From positions 160,001 to 224,000 of the forward strand of contig CAWJTV010000042.1 in assembly GCA_963845755.1 (NCBI GenBank): 64,000 nt of DNA. The letters are read 5' to 3'. The position numbers and the translations under genes were made by a program. The notes beneath the pieces were generated by a model. The model had not been told where the DNA came from and ran no database searches. It saw nothing but the letters and a program-made list of their open reading frames with translations. Of this stretch, positions 16,644 through 49,588 are shown one piece after another; the stretch's first letter is position 1; each line of letters starts with the position of its first letter. This DNA is from an uncultured Planctomycetota bacterium (GTDB lineage: Bacteria; Planctomycetota; Planctomycetia; Isosphaerales; Isosphaeraceae).

Positions 16644-16879
16644 ATCGACCTCCCTGGTCCCGTTCCTTGGCTTTCATCCGGCATCTCGTCCAGATTCTTG
16701 GAGGCTCTCCTTTAGATCGAGGGACAGAAATCCAACCTGACCTCAATCTGGGCAGTCGGACGATTCAGAACCTCTAGAGGCAGACGGGGCGGCGAAATGA
16801 GAATAGACCGGTCGAGCCAGATCGCGCCAGGGGCCGGAATCACCGAACGTGTCTCGCGGCCCTTTCACACGATAGGGAG

Positions 16880-16968
16880 CGGAGAGGGGGGGATTCGAAC
16901 CCCCGAGACCGGTTTCCCAGTCTAACGGTTTAGCAAACCGTCGCTATCGACCACTCAGCCACCTCTCC
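16880..16968 (-). tRNA. tRNA-Ser(GCT)
   Basis: GGAGAGG acceptor stem, anticodon arm ACGGT-TTGCTAA-ACCGT, long variable arm, GGTTCGAATCC T-loop, G discriminator; CCA not encoded. Confidence 0.96.
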
Positions 16969-25473: not shown

Positions 25474-27485
25474 TTCTATGACCCCAACAGAGTGGCATAT
25501 AGCCCGTTGATACCTGATACTGTCATCCCTCTGAGCCGCCTCAGAGGGCGTTGAACCCGACCCTGACGCCGGATTGCTGCTTGCATGGAGGTGATCGTCC
25601 TCGCGACGTCCTACCACGGAGAGCGGACATGACACGACGATCGGCCTTGGGACGGCACAGCCTCCGCATCCACCGGGAGTTCGTCCCCTCCCGCTGCCAG
25701 CTCCGCGCCCTGGCCTTGGCCTTCGAGCAGGCCCTCCCCATCATCCGGAGGCCGCTGACGACGCCGGCACGACCACAAATGTTCGTTGATTCTGATTTGA
25801 ATTCGTTCACACAACCAGGCCGTTCGGGGGCCCTCCGATGACCGAACCCATCGACCGCCGCGCCGCCTTGTACGCCAGGGTCTCCACCGAACAGCAGGCC
25901 CAAGAGGACACGATCGCCAGTCAACTCGATCTGTTGCGCCGGCGGATCCAGGCCGATGGCCTGACCGTCGCCCAGGAACTCCAATTCGCCGACGACGGTT
26001 ATTCGGGCGAGACCTTCCGGCGCCCCGCCCTGGAACGGTTGCGCGACACGGCCGCCGCCGGGGCGATCGACCGGATCTACATCGAGTGTCCCGACCGATT
26101 GGCACGGGATTACCCGTATCAGATGGTCGTGGTCGACGAGCTGCGCCGCCAGGGCGTCGAGGTCGTCTTCCTCAATCACGACCTCGATGAGAGCCCCGAG
26201 GGTCGACTGCTGTTGCAAGTCCAGGGGATCATCGCCGAATACGAGCGGGTCAAGGCCCGTGAGAAGTGTCGCCGCGGCCGGCTCTACGCGGCGCGGTCGG
26301 GCCAGGTCAGCGTCCTGGGCGGCGCGCCTTACGGATACCATTACCACACCAAGCAGGAGGGAGGTGGCGCGGCCCGGTATGTCGTCCAGTTCGCCGAGGC
26401 CCAGGTGGTCCGAGAGATCTTCACCTGGGTGGGGATCGAAGGATGTTCGCTCAGTCAGGTGTGCCGACGATTGCGAGAACGCGGGCTCCTTACCCGCACG
26501 GGCAAGGCGCATTGGGATCGGGCCACGGTCCTGGGCATGCTGCGCAACCCGGCTTACATGGGGACAGCCCACTTCAACAAGGTCCATTGCGTCCCGGCCC
26601 GTCCCCGGTTGCGCCCGCGTCGGGGAGTCCCCGAGTTTCCACGGCGACACACCGCCAAAGCGGCGACGCCCCCCGAGGACCAGATCCCGATCCCGGTGCC
26701 GGCGATCGTGGAGCCGGCCCTGTTCGAGGCCGTGCAGGAGCGGCTGGCGGAGCACCGCCGACATCCCGGCCAGGCGGCCCCCCGGCCGCGCCATCTGCTG
26801 GCGGGCTTGGTGGTGTGCCAGCGGTGTGGTTACGCGTATCGCGGTCGGGCCATGAAGAAGAAGGGAGGGAGTCGCTATGGCTATTACCGCTGTTATGGGG
26901 CGGAGGCCGAGTCCTTCGCCGGCCGGGCCCGGATCTGCGACAATCCGGCGATCCGGATCGAACGTCTGGACGAGGCGGTGTGGTCCGATGTGCGCGGGTT
27001 GTTGCTGGAGCCGGAGCGGTTGGCTGAGGAATTCGAGCGGCGGTTGAGTCGGGCGAACCGAGGCGAGGGGACGACTCAGTCGAGTCGGAGCCTGGACAAG
27101 TTGATCGGTCAGGTCCGCCGCAGGCTGGCGCGGCTGGTGGAGATGTACGCCGACGGATACATCGAGAAGGAGAAATTCCAGAGAGATATGGATATTTCTC
27201 GAACACGAATGTCAGAATTGGAGTCGGAGCGTCGGGCGATGGACCAGGAGGAACAGCAACGGGAGGAGTTACGGTTGGTGATGGGTCGGATCGAGGAATT
27301 CGGGCGCAGGTACGCGCCGGTTTGGATACCAGCGACGTGGCGACGCGTCGTCGGATCATTTGTGCACTGGTCAAGAAGGTCGAGATCGATGCCGAGGCGG
27401 TTCATATTGTGTATCGTGTGAGCCCTCGCCCTTTTGCCCAAACGGCCCCGACAGACGGTAACATGCCACACTGTTGGGGCCGTTC
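25474..27485 (+). mobile_element. Minimal large-serine-recombinase integrative element (~2 kb)
   Basis: 23-bp terminal inverted repeats at 25478-25500 (ATGACCCCAACAGAGTGGCATAT) and 27461-27483 (19/23 match); shared TTC at both junctions (25474-76, 27483-85); carries only a small ORF and the recombinase. Confidence 0.8.
25629..25841 (+). CDS. Small basic accessory protein of the recombinase element (possible directionality factor)
   Basis: GGAG RBS, 70 aa, ATGA overlap with the recombinase start. Confidence 0.55.
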   Translation: MTRRSALGRHSLRIHREFVPSRCQLRALALAFEQALPIIRRPLTTPARPQMFVDSDLNSFTQPGRSGALR

Positions 27486-29424: not shown

Positions 29425-29973
29425 CGTCTTTCCTTTCCGTTGTCGAGACTCTCGCATCACCTCCGGGTCAGAAACCGCTTGTGTCCCCGCGCCGAAGGGG
29501 CCGCGACGATCCGGTGCAGGAAGGATATCGCGGCTTCGGCCGCTGGCTGACCGTCGGCCGCCGTCAGGCCGGAGCTGGGCTCGACGGCGACGCCAGAGAG
29601 CAAGGACTGGGTGCACGCGATGCTGTAATCATCCTCGGGATTCGGTTTCGGCAGGTCCTGGTTGCGCTCGGCGCCCGAGTTGTCCATGCCTGAAGCTTCC
29701 GGAAGTTGCGTGAAATCGTGTGGACAGCCTCCCAGCACAGGGAAGTCTCCGGCGGCCCAAGCGACGCGGCGCAGTTGACCGGATTATCACATCCCAAGGT
29801 CAGACGTCGCAACTCTCACTATGGAAAAGTGGAGATCAGTGGGGTGGATTCGCATCGGCCCTGGGGTTTGCGCCTCTCAGTCGCCTGGCTCCCTAGACTT
29901 GTCCGGACGGCGTGAACCCGTTACTTTGGCAGGATCGGGTGGCGTGTCGGCAGATCGCAAAGGAACTGGATCG

Positions 29974-31811
29974 ATGATCACACCGGAGGAAGCGGCCGAT
30001 CGGCTCGGCCAGGCCGAATCGGCGGGCCACATTTCCCCGTCGGCGTTGAACAACATCCGGCGATGGCTGACGGAGGCCCCGTTCGCCAAGTACCGTCCCC
30101 AACTCCTGGAAGACATGACGCAGGGCCGGTGGGCCGAGCTGGACGAGGCGTTCTTCACCGTGCTCGAATTCGGCACGGGAGGCCGCCGCGGCAAGATGTA
30201 CCCCGTGGGGACGAACGTCCTCAACGCGCGGACGATCGCCGAAAGCGCGCGCGGCCTGGCCGACTACGTGACGTCGCAGAAAGGCGAGGGCTCGCGCCGG
30301 ACCTGCGTCATTGCCCGCGATACTCGTCACCATTCCGCCGGGTTCGCCGAGCTCTGTGCCTCGGTGCTCGCGGCCGCCGGTTTCCACGTGATCCTGTTCC
30401 GGGATTACCGTTCCACGCCGCTCCTCTCCTTCGCCGTGCGCCACCTGCACTGCGACGCCGGAATCATGATCACCGCGTCGCATAATCCGCCGTCGGACAA
30501 TGGATTCAAGTGCTATTCCGCCACCGGCGGCCAGGTCATCCCGCCCGACGACCTCGGCATCATCGACTGCGTGAAGGCCGCCTCCGATCGCGAGATCCCG
30601 GAGAAGCCGCTCGCGGCGGGCCTGGCGGACGGCTCGATCGTCTGGGCGAGTCCCGAACTGGACGCCGCCTACTTGACCTCCGTCGAGAGCGCGTCGGTCA
30701 GCCACGCGCGAGACCTGTCGATCGTGTACACGCCGCTCCATGGCGTCGGCGAGACGTCGGTGGCCGCCGCGCTGCGGATTGCGGGCTTTGCCGACGTCCA
30801 CATCCTCGAATCCCAGCGCACACCCGACGGCGACTTTCCCAATGTACCCGACCACGTCGCCAACCCCGAGTATCCCCGGACGCTCGAGGCCGCGATCCGC
30901 GAAGCCAGGAATCGGGCGCGGACCTCGTGCTGGCCAGCGATCCGGACGCCGACCGCATCGGTGTCGGCGTCCCGGTCACCGGCGATCCGAAGGGCGACTG
31001 GACGACCCTCGACGGCAACCAGATCGGTGTCCTCCTGGCCGCCTTCGTGATGAAGGAATGCGAGTATCACGGCTGGCTTCGGTCCGACCACTATCTGGTC
31101 ACGACCCTGGTCTCGACCGAGATGGCCCGCGCCCTGGCCCATCGCGAGGGGATCCATGTCGAGGACGACTTGCTCGTGGGCTTCAAGTGGATCGCCAACC
31201 GAATCGAGGAAGCCGGGCCCGCCAGTTTCTTGTTCGCCTTCGAGGAGTCGCACGGCTACCTCCGAGGGACCGACGTGCGCGACAAGGACGCGGGCGTGGC
31301 CTCGCTGCTCTTCGCCGAGTTCGCCGCCACCGTCAAGGACCGGAAGCAGACTGTCCTGGAATACCTCGATGATCTGTACATCGACGTGGGACACTATGCC
31401 GAGCGGCTGGTCAGCAAGACCTACGAAGGCCGAGAGGGCCACGCCAAGATTCAGACGTTGATGGAGGCGTTTCGCAACCGTCCGCCTGGCAAGCTCGGCG
31501 GGTTGACCCTCGTTGACGTGAGCGACTACCAGGCGCATGAGATCCGCTCGTTGAACGGGACTGGTCCAACCCGGCCTCTGCCGCAGCCTTCCGGCGACCT
31601 GCTCATTTTCCACGCCGATCGGCCCGGCTGCCGATTCGCCGCGCGGCCTTCGGGAACCGAGCCGAAGATCAAGTTCTATCTCTTCGCCCGGACCCCCGTG
31701 GAAGGCCCCGACCATCTGCCCGCCGCGAAGGAGCAAACGCGACGCGTCCTAGATGCGATGTCGTCCGACCTGGAGCGCTATGTCGAGGAAGCGCTGAAGG
31801 GATCGTCGTGA
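29974..31811 (+). CDS. Phosphoglucomutase/phosphomannomutase family protein; frameshift near 30910
   Basis: FGTGGRRG, ITASHNP phosphoserine loop, DPDADR metal loop, FEESHG, RPSGTEPKIKFY. Confidence 0.92.
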
Positions 31812-35520: not shown

Positions 35521-37762
35521 TCATTGTCCCGGCAAGATGAGCTTGGATCGCTCCTGTCCCGGGTCGGACGCGGCCTCGGAGCCGGGCGTCCAGATCGTCG
35601 AGCCGCCTCGTGCGGCCTCGGGAGTCCAGAGTCCGCCCGCCGCGGGGGCGGCGCCGAGGTCTCCGGCGGCGGTGGTGACCCGCGGGCCGTACTCGGTCAA
35701 CAAGTGGTCGAGGATCCGCGTGTCCAGAACAATCTTGTCGGGTTGTTTCGGGTCGGGCACGACGCTCACTAGACCGAACTCGGCGAGTCGGAGCAGCACC
35801 GCGGAGAGGGCTTCGCGGTTGCCGCGATAGCGTTGGAGGATGGCTGCGAGGACGGGGACCCAGACCTCCGGATCGTCGAAGACGAACTGGACCTGGAGGT
35901 CGATCAGCTCCCAGAGCAGCGCGCGTTGGGCGAGATCTTATGCGACGGCTCGGACTCGCGACCGCGGCGGATCCAACCCTGGGCCTCGGCTCGGTCGCCC
36001 CGCCGGGCCGCATCGTGTGCCAGGTCGCCGTAGAGGGTCGTCAGCGGGATTCGGCTCTTCATGGGGAGGGAGGGTCGCTGAGCGATCGCGCGACCGGCCC
36101 CATTCATCACCGTGCGCATACCCCAGACTCGGGACAAATAGTAGAGGTGCAGCAGCCCCTCGTCGTCGAGCTCCGCAGTCGGGATCAGCGACCAGCGCGA
36201 CATGTGGACCCGATCGAGGTCCAGGCCCTGGACCGCCACAGCCGGTTCGGGTTTGACCCCCAGCCGCGCGCGGAACTGGCTCCAGTCGAGCAGCTCGGAG
36301 GAATCCTCCTCGGACGTTTCCAGGAGACGAACCGCGGCGCGGAGTGCTGTCTCGGAATCGCCGGCCTTGGCCGCCTGAAGGGGCGTCCGGCCGCGGAGTG
36401 CCGGATGGGCGCCTGCGGCCAGATCTCGCTGATGATGTGCGATTTCTGATCGCGGGTGATCCGCTCGACGTCGTCCTCCGGGAGGCCCGTGGGCAATCTC
36501 CACTGCCAGCTCATGGCCAGGAGATGCCGCGAGACTTTCTCGATGATCTTGGTCCGGGGATGGGCCGGGGGGATGTTCGCCCGCGCCGCGGCCGTGAACC
36601 GATCGCTGAGCCGGTCGAGCCGGCCGTCGTCGTAGGTCTCCAGCACGACGGTGTCCCGGCCGACGATCACGTCGCCTTCGACCGTCGGGATGTCCCGTCG
36701 GGTGAGCCCCGGCCGCGCCTCGATCCGGGGCCGGTCGAGCAGGTGGAACCGCTCGGTCGGCGCGGCCTCGGGATCGCTGGGATCCAGGGGCCGATTCGGT
36801 CCGGCTTCGAAGGCCGGGTCGGCCCGGAGGGCCTCCAGCAGCCCTTCCCGGTTGCGGATCGCCCAGCTCAAGCGAACGAACTCTACGGGATCGGCGATCG
36901 TGCTGGGACCGATCCGCTGGCAAAGGGCCTCGAGGTCGACCGCCTCGACGGTCGGCCCCGTCTTCGTGATGAAGCGGCGCAGGGCCGCGACGGCGGCGGC
37001 ATTGTCGGCGATCCACAGGCAGCAGATGCCGCGATTCCGCTCGGCGATCGCGCCGGCCGACGAGGCGGCGGCCAGCAGCTCGAACGCCGACGCCGCCGAC
37101 GCCCAGAGGCCCTCGTCCGCCCAGCCCATCGCCCGCTCGAACGACTCGCGGAACGCGTCGGTCACCCCCTCAGGCGGCGGCCAGACATCATAGGCGTTCT
37201 TCTCCCAGACGGAGAACCCCGCGTTCGTTCGCAGAGCCTGGATCACCCGCGCGGTCGAATCGTCGATGGTGCCGCCCCACTGCTGCGTCAGCTCCAGGTG
37301 CCGGAAGCCGGCGATCGGCAACCCGGACCGACACAGCGTGATGCCCAGCATGGTGGCCATCGGCGCCAGTTGACGCCGCTTCTCCGGCGCCATGGCCGAG
37401 ATCCCTTGCTGAAACTGGGCGACGGCCGCCACGATGCCCTCGGTCTCCAGCACCAGCCGCGTCATCAGGATCGTCCCGCCCAGGTGGCCGGGGTCCTTCT
37501 TGAGCAGGGCCTGCAGGCTCTGCTTGGCCGGCTCCGCCCGCTCGAGCTGGATCTCGATCAGGGCTTTGCGCGTCAGCAGCCAGGGATTGTCGGGGAACTT
37601 GGCCAGACCCTCGCCCAGGGGTTTCAGTGCCGACTCATGCTGGCCGCTCTCCACCATCCGCTGCGCGCGCTCGGCGTAGGATTCGACCTTCTGGCAGCAA
37701 AATTTGAACTTCTCACCACTCCCGCACGGGCAGGACGCATAGGGGTTAACCGACGCCATCAT
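35521..37762 (-). CDS. SEC-C motif / TPR-like protein; frameshifts near 36400 and 35920
   Basis: CPCGSGEKFKFCC N-terminus, helical repeats; continues in ORFs 35904 and 35521 to end KLILPGQ. Confidence 0.75.
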
Positions 37763-39022: not shown

Positions 39023-39217
39023 TCACGACGCCTTCGGTTTCTTCCGTGAGGAGCCTTTCGGCTTGGCCGACTTCTCCAGTTTCCCCTTCGTGGGACCCGA
39101 CTCCCCGGCCTGGTCTTCCGGCTGCTCCGACTCCTCGACACCATGTTCGAGAGGGCGCTCGCCAAAAATCTTGTCGAAGTTCGGGAAACCGTAGCGGCGT
39201 ACAATAGGTCCACTCAT
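39023..39217 (-). CDS. Small basic protein (MSGPIVRRYGFPNFDKIFG...), integration target whose 5' end is supplied by the island
   Basis: AGGA RBS; the same N-terminal peptide is encoded again at 40712-40754. Confidence 0.65.
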   Translation of the reverse strand: MSGPIVRRYGFPNFDKIFGERPLEHGVEESEQPEDQAGESGPTKGKLEKSAKPKGSSRKKPKAS

Positions 39218-39242
39218 GATCATATTTCCTATTGGCAGAACC

Positions 39243-39965
39243 TCAGGTCGATTGTGCTTCTGGCTCAGGGTCGTCGGGCTCTAGATCCAAGACCTCCTGA
39301 TAAGGTCGGGGATCTTCACCGCCGGCCGGTAGTGGGCCCTCCGCCCGGCACAGCCCTCTTGTAAGCTGGTAGAGATCAAAATCATATCTCTTGCAAATGC
39401 CCCACCAGTCGCGGAAGATGAACGCACTCAGGGAGCGGTTCACACCGCAACACGCCTCGACGGGTGCTCTTCCGAGACAATCGTCGAGTTCCTCCATGCA
39501 GGCAATCTTGGGCAGATCGAAAAACCGGAAGCAATCGAACTTGCCCTTGTAATAATTACGATTGCCGTGCTCCTTAAAGAGCCGTTGGTTCTGAAAAATC
39601 CTCCCCCGATTCTCCCCTCTCCATTCCCATCTGCGGACTTCTGAATCCACCATCTGGAAGAAATGTGGATCGACTATCGCTAAGTCGAGATCCGATGAGG
39701 GACCGTATTCCATCCAGACCTTCGCCGCCTTCGGTGCAATGCTGAATCCGATCTTCGTGCTCCCCTTGAAAAAAAGGCAGTTCGGATGGATGCCTATACA
39801 ATCGGAAATATGGTGCAGCAAATCATGATGCAAGGAATGGGTTTGGATGGCGCGGGGGGTCCCTGGAATCAGGATCGAGTTGATAAGCTTATTCTTGTCT
39901 GTGAGGGCTAGTTCATGGACCTCTCTGGGACTAACGATGATGTGCCCTTGGGCATCGAAATGCAC
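39243..39965 (-). CDS. Pol-beta superfamily nucleotidyltransferase-like protein
   Basis: FKGSTKIGFS...SDLDLAIVD (GS...DxD); GTG start at 39965 with a GGAGG RBS, 4 nt after the upstream stop. Confidence 0.7.
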   Translation of the reverse strand: MHFDAQGHIIVSPREVHELALTDKNKLINSILIPGTPRAIQTHSLHHDLLHHISDCIGIHPNCLFFKGSTKIGFSIAPKAAKVWMEYGPSSDLDLAIVDPHFFQMVDSEVRRWEWRGENRGRIFQNQRLFKEHGNRNYYKGKFDCFRFFDLPKIACMEELDDCLGRAPVEACCGVNRSLSAFIFRDWWGICKRYDFDLYQLTRGLCRAEGPLPAGGEDPRPYQEVLDLEPDDPEPEAQST

Positions 39966-39969
39966 GGGA

Positions 39970-40494
39970 TCAACCCTCCGCACGCTCGACGACAACCAAC
40001 GGCTGATTGTAATGCCCCTTCGAGTCAAAAAGCGGATCGGTCATCCGGAGACGTACTCGACGATCACATACTGGGCATCTGAACATATCGCCGCTCATAG
40101 GAATGTAGTCTTGCCGGGCGATCTCTTGGTGGCAATAAGGACAGGCCGAGATATCTCTGAATCTGCAAGTCGGACAGATAGTGGGCAATACCGGCCCTGC
40201 GATATGTCCACAGTTGGTGCACTCTGGTCCCGAACCTTCCGTCACGATCGACACACCAGCCCGAGGAGCATACCCGAAGGCGTCGATGACCTTCTGAACT
40301 TCATCGGGGTAATTTGTGGCGAACTCAAAATACGCATTGCGATCCGAATCTCTGTGTGTCCCGTGTGTAGGACTGTCAGGGACAATCTCGACGGGCGAGC
40401 GGGCCCAAAGGTCGCGCCGCACTCGCGCGGCGATGCGTAGATCATCGGCAGAATCGGTGGGGTTGTGCTTGATGGTGATTCGGACTTTTGTCAT
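39970..40494 (-). CDS. Double zinc-ribbon protein
   Basis: Four CxxC pairs (CTNC, CPTC, CPYC, CPVC) after an ~85-aa N-terminal domain; GGAG RBS; TATAAT at 40535-40530. Confidence 0.75.
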   Translation of the reverse strand: MTKVRITIKHNPTDSADDLRIAARVRRDLWARSPVEIVPDSPTHGTHRDSDRNAYFEFATNYPDEVQKVIDAFGYAPRAGVSIVTEGSGPECTNCGHIAGPVLPTICPTCRFRDISACPYCHQEIARQDYIPMSGDMFRCPVCDRRVRLRMTDPLFDSKGHYNQPLVVVERAEG

Positions 40495-41002
40495 GGCGGT
40501 CTCCGGAGCATGGCGAGATCCATGATTCGATTATAACGACTCTGATCGGGCCAACAGAAGGCGCCTCGGAACCCGATCAATCTGGGTCCGACCCGGAGCA
40601 GTGCCGAATCCGAAATCGCTCATACGATGGACGTCGGGCAAGGGCGAGGGGCGCTTCTGGTAAACCCCTTCTGGGTTTCAGGTTAAGAATTCGGGGCAGT
40701 TCTTGGATTTTGAAAGTTCGGGAAACCATACTTACGAACGATCGGACCTGACAATTCGCACCTCCGTTTCCGAGAGATCCGGGCAATCAACAACTGGCCA
40801 AGCGGATTCGATGAATCACGCAAGGTTCGCCGGAGAGTCGGAATCGAACTCGTCGTGCACCGGTTCTCGGCGTCCCTCCTCTGTGGTCTTGCCTCGTTCA
40901 TGATAAACGAAAGGCTGAGCGTCGGGCGACTGGTGCGAAGAACCAGTTGGCGCGGTATCCTTGAGAGATGACGGACATTCACCAACTTCGGGGGCATCCC
41001 CA

Positions 41003-48188: not shown

Positions 48189-48722
48189 TCAGGAAAACCA
48201 GGGCCGTCGCGTGGTCCGCAACGTGACCAAACGTCGCCGGCCATCGATCGTCAAGTGGAGGTTCGCCCACCGCAAGGCGCGGAGCCCGAGGAGGGGCAAG
48301 CGCGGCGCGCGCGTCGCCTCTTGGGGATAAACGACGATCCCCGAGGGGAGATCGAGCCGGAAGGGATTTCGATCTGCTGGCCGATCACGCTCTCCCCGCG
48401 CGTTTGGTCTGAGCCAGATGTCAGCGTGATACGAAGGAACGTGGTCTCCGCTGACGCGAACGGCTCCGTACTTCGATAGGTATCGCGGATCCAGTCCAGC
48501 CCATCGGACCAGGTGATCCTCTCGAATCGAGAAATTGTGGGTGTGCCCCGTATCGAGAATCGCTGGGAAAAAGGGATAGGCAGGATCGTATTCGGTCTGG
48601 CCGCGCTCCGTGAGGCCAACCCATACGATAATCTGATCGGCTTTGATCGAGACATGATGGCCTTGAAAAACGACCGTCGTGGTCGTGACGAAGAAAGGAA
48701 GGTCCCGACTAATGATCGTCAT
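48189..48722 (-). CDS. Retropepsin-like aspartyl protease
   Basis: AILDTG catalytic motif; PLLGLRAL C-terminal motif; GGA/GGAT RBS. Confidence 0.75.
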   Translation of the reverse strand: MTIISRDLPFFVTTTTVVFQGHHVSIKADQIIVWVGLTERGQTEYDPAYPFFPAILDTGHTHNFSIREDHLVRWAGLDPRYLSKYGAVRVSGDHVPSYHADIWLRPNARGERDRPADRNPFRLDLPSGIVVYPQEATRAPRLPLLGLRALRWANLHLTIDGRRRLVTLRTTRRPWFS

Positions 48723-48745
48723 GGAGGCATCCTGCCTGTATGGCC

Positions 48746-49384
48746 TCAAATATCGCAGAACTCTTCCCAGTCGAGTTCATCCGGCGGCTCCGGCTCGATG
48801 CCCCGGACGACGAATTCGTCGTGGTCCAGACCTTGGCGGAGACATTGCTGATAGAGCTTGTTTTTGGAGCGTCCGATCCCAAGTTGCCGATCACCGCTGT
48901 AAGCCACCCACTTGCCTGCATGCTTCTTGAGCAACTCCGGCAGGTCGCGGCTAAACGCTTCCTGACCGCTCTGGATCAGCGGAGGGACCGGTCGATGGAC
49001 CCAGGAGCGATCGTTGGCGATCTGAGGGTCCAGTTCTTCCTCGACCGGATTGAGCGACTCGACCATCTTGCAAAACTCTTCCCAATCCACTTCCGGCTCG
49101 ATGCCTCTTACGACGAATTCGTCGTGGTCCAGCCCCTGGCGGAGGCATTGCTGATAGAGCTTGTTTTTGGAGCGTCCGATCCCAAGTTGCCGGTCACCGC
49201 TGTAGGCCACCCAATGGCCTGCGTGCTTCTTGAGTAGTTCGGGCAGGTCGCGACTGAACGCTTCCTGACCTCGCTGGATCAGTGGCGGGACCGGTCGATG
49301 GACCCAAGAAGAGTCGCTGGTGACCTGAGAGCCCGGTTCATCTTCGACCGGACGACTCGGATCGGCAGGCGATATCGAGGACAT
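48746..49384 (-). CDS. DUF5678-like protein made of two tandem ~101-aa copies
   Basis: AFSRDLPELLKKHAGxWVAYSGDRQLGIGRSKNKLYQQC twice; 303-bp period. Confidence 0.7.
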   Translation of the reverse strand: MSSISPADPSRPVEDEPGSQVTSDSSWVHRPVPPLIQRGQEAFSRDLPELLKKHAGHWVAYSGDRQLGIGRSKNKLYQQCLRQGLDHDEFVVRGIEPEVDWEEFCKMVESLNPVEEELDPQIANDRSWVHRPVPPLIQSGQEAFSRDLPELLKKHAGKWVAYSGDRQLGIGRSKNKLYQQCLRQGLDHDEFVVRGIEPEPPDELDWEEFCDI

Positions 49385-49588
49385 GATCGCGACCCTCGCG
49401 AGCAGTGACTGCGGGAACACGGGGACCTCCACCACATTATCGACCATCGCTCCCGGGTTGACAAGCCGGAATGCCAAGCTTCACCGTCCTATGAAGGGGC
49501 CAGGGTCTTGGGATTTGCGGCCGGTTCGATTAGTCTGATGCGACACCAGGGATCGTTACGCACCTCAATCGACGACGAGGACGCTCCG

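Follow-up and report, generated by a model that had tools for sequence, protein, structure and literature searches.

A two-gene cassette from an uncultured planctomycete, in which a gene for a protein with predicted zinc sites (here termed the zinc protein) precedes a gene for a putative Pol-beta nucleotidyltransferase (NTase), is a real, conserved and mobile NTase module that has apparently not been described previously. Judged from sequence and structure predictions, the pair most likely forms an undescribed toxin–antitoxin or defence module. The more specific reading favoured here, to which we assign a probability of roughly 45%, is that of a mobile toxin–antitoxin-type module, the NTase of which would be a toxin, with the zinc protein restraining it.

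The cassette lies on the minus strand of the window, i.e. the 64,000-nt stretch of DNA that was analysed (positions 160,001–224,000 of contig CAWJTV010000042.1, assembly GCA_963845755.1; Planctomycetota, Isosphaeraceae). The gene for the zinc protein (39970..40494, 174 aa), defined by its CxxC pairs, homologues, predicted model and dN/dS, is proposed to encode an antitoxin or regulatory subunit and is followed after 4 nt by the NTase gene (39243..39965, 240 aa, GTG start), the proposed toxin, in which the motifs GSTKxGFSxxP, SDLDLA and FRDW indicate membership of the Pol-beta superfamily. A TATAAT −10 box upstream (40530..40535, minus strand) is assigned to the cassette's own promoter, based on its sequence and on its conservation in homologous upstream regions. 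The consensus promoter scan demands a −35 box and did not report this TATAAT, for which there is no canonical −35, and support for the promoter consequently rests on conservation: an exact TATAAT was present in 14 of the 33 upstream regions of zinc gene homologues and a near match in 24 of the 33. The GC content of the 1,523 bases between the flanking repeats is 54.2%, compared with a genome mean of 64.4%, and values as low as this were obtained for 0.27% of 9,344 same-size segments of the genome. Besides the start of a host gene, no further ORF was called between the repeats. The operon layout, its AT-richness relative to the host and its position as the only cargo between att-like repeats had all been pointed out in the original prediction and were confirmed. 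Compared with a relative's cassette (L002), both genes are under purifying selection, with dN/dS values of about 0.13 for the zinc protein (dN 0.11, dS 0.81) and 0.18 for the NTase (dN 0.12, dS 0.70). The nearest relatives that carry a name belong to the Isosphaeraceae or elsewhere in the Planctomycetota.

The two genes represent a conserved operon. Among 37 loci retrieved from GTDB genomes, 32 encode close NTase homologues, and the zinc gene is located directly upstream in 30 of these, in support of the pairing noted in the original prediction; of the two others, one begins at a contig end and one holds a decayed NTase. None of the five distant NTase loci in this set carries the zinc gene. 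Within the bacterial family to which the window belongs, an NTase match was found in 16 of 121 genomes (13 close and three distant) and the zinc gene in 15 of 121; all 13 genomes with a close NTase also harbour the zinc gene, and 13 of the 15 genomes with the zinc gene harbour the NTase. In 32 of 33 loci, the small gene precedes the enzyme gene and the two are separated by −17 to +11 nt. Most carriers of the pair are planctomycetes; it is also present in Myxococcota, and a sample of 400 genomes from across the phylum contained no full-length zinc gene (four weak partial matches), indicative of a patchy distribution. Searches of viral contigs for the zinc gene, and of phages and plasmids for copies of the NTase, returned none. 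Pairwise distances of the zinc protein and the NTase are correlated (rho=0.65, exceeded in 0 of 2000 permutations; 26 loci), which, as kin share their history, is indicative of joint travel and not of physical co-adaptation. In the phylogenetic tree, zinc-linked NTases occupy one side of a branch (94/91), with host families being mixed.

Neither protein was assigned to a named family or system, consistent with the original prediction. Matches at curated cut-offs were absent from Pfam, PADLOC and NCBIfam for both the zinc protein and the NTase, and the same three libraries held no curated family for the 48–65 NTase homologues tested; in PHROGs, neither protein was assigned (best E-value 0.0045). 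Literature searches, the coverage of which excluded Nicastro et al. 2023, the original Hailong report and the CloB homologue table, produced no title or abstract in which the pair is described.

The catalytic core of the NTase was located at G68-S69 (GS) and D92-x-D94 (DxD). Homologues of the protein are numerous, with 126 close relatives and, following a profile search, 890 clusters at 50% identity. The previously noted Pol-beta motif, a GS with the DxD on the strand after it, was borne out: none of the 65 distant homologues departs from G68, S69, D92 or D94, and G73 and P78 are likewise invariant in this set. Evidence for the Pol-beta fold itself was less firm. The NTase model was predicted with high confidence (pLDDT 93.8), and its best structural matches are minimal NTases, namely 1no5 (Z 4.9, rmsd 3.6, 93 aligned residues), 8xeh (Z 4.1) and 5yep (Z 3.4), yet the top matches of all three fold searches, although NTases, were weak (Z below 5). 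The best Foldseek matches were terminal uridylyl transferases (E-value 0.26), the NTP_transf_2 model was matched below its cut-off by four of 65 members, PDB sequence searches with two profiles returned nothing relevant, and in the ESM Atlas the NTase fell into unnamed clusters at 0.97, one of which is annotated as NTP_transf_2 in 11% of cases.

The canonical third catalytic acid seems to be absent from the NTase sequence. Residue 180, on the strand formed by residues 179–184, is where this acid would be expected, and it is Asp in six of 62 close and four of 65 distant homologues; this position was chosen by eye on the basis of the secondary structure, a profile alignment to minimal nucleotidyltransferases (MNTs) reached this strand unreliably, and D99, D150 or D186 could substitute. 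A MenT-type autophosphorylation site was considered and rejected. In MenT3 the phosphorylated residue, S78, lies just before the DxD, and the conserved Ser/Thr of MenT proteins is spaced two residues ahead of this motif. At the corresponding position of the NTase, residue 90, 12 of 62 homologues have a Ser or Thr, and the invariant Ser is residue 91, which immediately precedes the first Asp, an arrangement shared with MNTs. Some NTase homologues (P0255, P0267, P0299, P0277, P0107, P0108 and P0114) possess C-terminal tails that, by eye, are leucine-rich-repeat-like, composed of short repeats or zinc-ribbon-like. An apparent fusion, a 1,421-aa frame across the NTase in genome G001, was dismissed as it looks like read-through into an opposite-strand gene.

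The partner had been described as a double zinc-ribbon protein, a description that holds for its four CxxC pairs (residues 92/95, 107/110, 118/121 and 140/143), which correspond to two predicted zinc sites, but which overlooked the N-terminal half. According to the predicted model, residues 1–86 form a ferredoxin-like domain, for which the fold match is generic (best Z 7.8) and the top matches include ribosomal proteins; the fold search barely probed the zinc-ribbon half. The N-terminal domain carries the conserved motifs DDLRxAxxxRxDLW and HGTHRD. The zinc protein has 200 homologues; seven of its cysteines are invariant and one is near-invariant, as are several acidic, His and Arg residues (D18, D28, E36, H44, R48, D49, E57 and D114). 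No helix-turn-helix was seen, ESM Atlas leads were all under 0.9, and none of 8000 scored candidates represented a fused or longer version of the protein, which is weak evidence. Two homologues are named 'predicted RNA-binding Zn-ribbon protein' at source. The mean distance between homologues is 0.50 for the zinc protein and 0.57 for the NTase, the former thus being the better conserved of the two.

Structure prediction of the zinc protein together with the NTase gave a complex score of 0.59, compared with 0.00 for the best control, with a contact agreement between runs of at least 88% and a partner pLDDT of at least 81. In the benchmark, 116 of 157 solved pairs and two of 215 mismatched pairs attained the mark; since few of the passing solved pairs (18) and both passing mismatches scored 0.60 or under, the predicted complex is rated as weak.

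The repeats that bound the cassette mark a site-specific insertion at the 5′ end of a small core gene. This gene (39023..39217, minus strand; 64 aa), identified as the integration target through a survey of 5′ patterns in genomes of the family, starts with MSGPIVR(R/K)YGFPNF, is invariant in its N-terminal 25 residues and has no Pfam or PHROGs match. An exact 14-bp repeat occurs at only two places in the 14.27-Mb genome (39177–39190 and 40714–40727), and both copies encode, on the minus strand, the start of the core gene. The left att-like repeat (40713..40754, minus strand) is the displaced host-type 5′ end of the gene, which retains the common host wording (RKY) and has lost its ATG, while the right att-like repeat (39176..39223, minus strand) is a recoded start (RRY), supplied by the cassette, that restores the gene. 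A chance repeat was ruled out, as the sequence is unique in the genome and recurs in relatives, as was an att site of the tRNA type, there being no tRNA nearby; the only tRNA in the window, tRNA-Ser(GCT) at 16879–16968 (minus strand), is 22 kb from the cassette. The usual upstream neighbour of the core gene, a sugar isomerase-like gene, is located on another contig in this genome.

The same site is used in several members of the family. The 5′ pattern of the core gene was detected in 112 of 121 family genomes, with multiple occurrences in seven of these, compared with zero for a control pattern. The zinc gene–NTase pair is present between the same repeats in two other genera (G056 and G071), as a tandem array of three copies in G071, and DNA homology to a relative's cassette (L002; G071) begins exactly at the left repeat. 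The mobile islet that the original prediction had proposed is thus a site-specific one that is shared, with its repeats, by three genera. In a genome of the same genus (G046), 27 kb of other DNA is found at the insertion place, and other cassettes of 0.3–1.1 kb lie between such repeats in G012, G014, G022 and G069. Overall, these cassettes measure 0.3–1.6 kb, with one of 11.6 kb, and none contains a recombinase gene. The junction between the NTase gene and the host gene was recovered at about 90% identity on a contig of an independent run; a joint across the cassette was not found in the contigs of four DNA runs. These data point to the core-gene start as a conserved attB of one bacterial family that would collect small accessory cassettes. 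The same att site is occupied in several genomes (L095:1908–2902, L097:13242–14099, L093:859–1778 and L076:11420–13508) by a second two-gene cassette, provisionally labelled 'HEPN-like', whose proteins of about 130 and 175 aa match nothing in Pfam or PHROGs; one copy of this cassette is present elsewhere in the window's own genome.

The geometry of the cassette ends suggests that a serine integrase acting in trans may insert them. A 9-bp motif of the host gene reappears in the cassette end (40696..40704, minus strand), displaced outwards by 5 bp, an arrangement that would resemble serine integrase attP/attB sites, in which an outer motif is shifted by 5 bp between attB and attP (PMC3783163). 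Out of 15 shifts tried on 11 orphan repeats from nine genomes, +5 was the best in eight repeats, three of which derive from one cassette family, one arm being measured; the mean motif score was 2.0 at +5 and −11 or lower at the 14 other shifts. The window's own genome contains 27 Recombinase-domain matches, none of which is tied to this site, and inspection by eye of the regions read did not reveal an integrase next to the insertion site. A large serine recombinase domain within a 541-aa frame is encoded elsewhere in the window (26396–26752, plus strand), has equal-scoring copies on three other contigs and looks like part of a multi-copy mobile element. Flanking direct repeats were sought in about 40 pair loci and were clear at the three att-site loci and at L020 and L084, where the pair is flanked by duplicated ends of different genes, and were not clear at the others, which indicates that the core-gene site is one route among several. 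On two metagenome contigs (L084:1880–3250 and L087:1100–6023), the pair resides within NADH dehydrogenase gene clusters, and the duplicated 49-bp gene end at L084 resembles the end of subunit D.

The gene neighbourhoods of the pair are for the most part not defence islands. Among 123 neighbours at 37 loci no recurrent third gene was observed, blastp links being restricted to near-identical loci or to repeat and ABC domains, and most of the named products among 89 scanned proteins (82 of them drawn from the called neighbours of the pair) are housekeeping functions. Defence or toxin–antitoxin genes adjoin the pair in a minority of loci, given here as raw counts: type I RM (L016), BREX genes (L029), DACNG with DUF6602 (L023), DUF4062 (L003), PIN (L015), an MNT (L017) and an Rv0078B-like gene (L018).

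Distant relatives of the NTase, by comparison, pair with DUF262 genes or terminate an Rhs protein, which links the NTase family to biological conflict. In nine loci (L033, L035, L036, L037, L123, L129, L130, L131 and L133), the NTase precedes a DUF262 gene (GmrSD_N, ParB-like); these pairs occur in Proteobacteria, in one planctomycete and on two plasmids, their NTase lacks a PADLOC model, and they are a candidate for a system in its own right. In two unrelated bacteria (L127:708–2064 and L132:3241–4495), the gene of another distant subgroup directly follows one for a transglycosylase-like protein, and one distant relative stands alone. At L122:6079–11190, the C-terminus of an Rhs protein from a member of the window's bacterial family is related to the NTase (hhalign 95.9%, pairwise E-value 6e-9), although this domain sits on a long branch and its placement in the tree is unsure; a 111-aa gene follows in the immunity position, and the domain is possibly an undescribed interbacterial toxin domain.

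In the mechanism that we favour, a 1.5-kb unit without an integrase is inserted at the start of the core gene, the 5′ end of which it replaces, and a large serine recombinase encoded elsewhere would perform the insertion. The zinc protein, made first and translationally coupled to the NTase, would bind the enzyme and keep it off; upon loss or displacement of the zinc protein through cassette loss, stress or phage infection, toxicity would be released. By analogy with MenT/AbiEii, the NTase would modify an essential target by nucleotide addition, an RNA 3′ end being the most plausible candidate. Gene decay leans towards an NTase toxin and a zinc antitoxin, and against the polarity of Clover and Hailong. 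With five loci truncated by contig ends set aside from the 46, eight combine a whole zinc ORF with a disrupted or missing NTase, and two (L003 and L125) combine a whole NTase with a broken zinc gene; in one further locus the NTase is gone along with the end of the zinc gene, and another retains NTase fragments only. Allowing for gene length, this asymmetry is not significant (P=0.13, or 0.09 when L147 is counted), and some breaks are possibly assembly errors. Together with this asymmetry, the conserved pairing and correlated distances, the gene order, the cassette's own promoter, the scattered insertion sites, the use of the core-gene site by other two-gene cassettes, the Rhs-linked relative, which lies at the usual position of a toxin, and the weak predicted complex favour a toxin–antitoxin-type module. 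Counted against it are the mostly non-acidic residue 180, fold matches below Z 5, a zinc protein with a generic ferredoxin-like match and without a helix-turn-helix, and the unsure placement of the Rhs domain; moreover, the whole NTase ORFs at L003 and L125 would need to have lost expression. Of the three roles put forward originally for the zinc protein, namely antitoxin, sensor or substrate, that of antitoxin or regulator fits best.

Several of these observations may also be read as the signature of a two-subunit enzyme, in which the zinc protein would be an activating or specificity subunit whose ferredoxin-like domain and zinc ribbons bind the substrate, either RNA or protein, and perhaps contribute the third acid in trans, much as in Trf4-Air2 a separate RNA-binding subunit serves a eukaryotic non-canonical tailing enzyme. 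The zinc protein is conserved beyond the level usual for an antitoxin and exceeds the NTase in this respect, its near-invariant acidic, His and Arg residues and the non-acidic residue 180 of most NTases would be accounted for, and the ribosomal-protein fold matches, the two homologues named as RNA-binding, the weak complex and the additional C-terminal zinc ribbon of some NTases all point the same way. However, the eight loci in which whole zinc ORFs accompany dead NTases would be unexplained, NTase relatives without a zinc partner (next to DUF262, alone or at the Rhs tip) also lack an acid at this position, and the fold matches are generic; we consider this alternative unlikely, if the foremost of the competing readings. 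A composite version is about equally unlikely: the pair would be a new kind of two-subunit nucleotidyltransferase system, its NTase drawn from a large conflict family that is missing from the catalogues and its zinc-ribbon protein gating or completing that enzyme, and it would move as one of many integrase-free cassettes that a serine recombinase stacks in tandem at the core-gene start, in the manner of an integron.

Reversing the roles, the NTase might constantly produce a nucleotide whose inhibitory action holds back a toxic zinc protein until a phage removes the signal, following the logic of Clover and Hailong. The HGTHRD patch could then be an active or ligand site, and distant NTase relatives occur beside DUF262 (ParB-like) genes at nine loci or alone, contexts that are also listed for CloB homologues. 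Conversely, no effector domain is recognisable in the zinc protein, CloB's third acidic motif was not found in the NTase, no dGTPase neighbour was seen, and the eight loci with a whole zinc ORF and a broken NTase, of which L014, L018, L026 and L032 retain an intact TATAAT, are at odds with a toxic zinc protein, making this explanation rather improbable. Less probable still is a CBASS-like arrangement, with the NTase synthesising a diffusible messenger that activates an effector and the zinc protein acting as a phage sensor. Besides the Pol-beta fold, the few loci in a defence context (L016 with type I RM, L029 with BREX and L023 with DACNG/DUF6602) would suit it, but the absence of a recurrent third gene among the 123 neighbours, of any PADLOC match and of a CdnD match above background (Z 2.8) speaks against it. 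The CD-NTase signal synthase idea raised in the original prediction accordingly found no support, no effector gene travelling with the pair.

Small Pol-beta NTases have lately been a source of new chemistry, including tRNA-tailing toxins, p3diT and protein-primed oligo-dA. The family described here is without a model in four libraries and has at least four types of partner, its zinc-linked branch representing a compact two-gene unit, and the insertion site is a place to mine for further toxin–antitoxin or defence modules. Elsewhere in the window, a 243-aa ORF (48740–49477) composed of two 261-nt repeats that are 87% identical is followed by a 186-aa ORF (48189–48749), an arrangement suggestive of two small accessory genes that form a pair and contain an internal duplication. 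Two long genes (29821–31811 and 35521–37762) are split across frames, and the SEC-C/TPR gene encodes 525 aa in the window, compared with 746 aa in G046, suggestive of indel assembly errors or recent frameshifts.

Among known systems, CBASS differs most plainly, as the query and 48 homologues gave no PADLOC match and no third gene recurs. MNT-HEPN modules share a GS...SDxD core with the NTase, whose best structural matches are MNTs; however, the NTase comprises 240 aa, compared with about 100–120 aa for the matched MNT chains, and has N-terminal and helical insertions, its partner has no HEPN match, and MntA was matched below threshold only (two of 65 members, best E-value 0.016). The pair resembles Clover and Hailong in possessing a stand-alone Pol-beta NTase of about 200–240 aa in a two-gene operon. 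In these, Clover consists of the dGTPase CloA and the NTase CloB, the latter described with a third acidic motif (PMC12265719), Hailong consists of HalA and HalB (PMC13434031), and a dead NTase is the toxic state in both (PMC12265719; PMC13434031). In contrast, no dGTPase or membrane effector accompanies the present NTase, and gene loss leans towards the opposite polarity. HalA is transmembrane, whereas the modelled partner is a soluble ferredoxin-like and zinc-ribbon protein, and HalB was absent among the structure and PDB matches listed for the NTase. CloB homologues are depicted next to a dGTPase, a patatin or a ParB-like/HNH gene, as single genes or in 'other' contexts (PMC12265719, Extended Data Fig. 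1a); a zinc-ribbon partner lies outside the named effector classes and could be hidden within the last of these. The ParB-like and single-gene contexts that distant relatives of the NTase share with CloB homologues suggest that the NTase may be related to CloB. An HD-domain gene was found among the 89 scanned proteins at L003 only, two places upstream, and none of the three new loci contributed by 400 plus 401 proteobacterial genomes is linked to a dGTPase, a number too low to decide against such kinship.

With regard to mobility, the insertion site resembles those of large serine integrases (PMC3783163) in being about 40 bp long, alike around a central dinucleotide, shifted by 5 bp in its outer motif and subject to tandem accretion, differing in that the cassettes lack a recombinase and that the shifted motif is a few bases more distal than that of the solved example. 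With regard to function, no NTase member among the 62 or 65 examined matched a DUF1814/AbiEii model of Pfam or NCBIfam at an E-value of 0.1, the partner is a ferredoxin-like zinc-ribbon protein, and the Ser/Thr two residues before the first Asp is unconserved, yet by analogy the zinc gene–NTase pair would seem to work most like MenAT/AbiE, with which it shares a two-gene operon that places a small gene before that of a DxD nucleotidyltransferase, and the antitoxins of which are diverse and can act by binding (PMC11375011).
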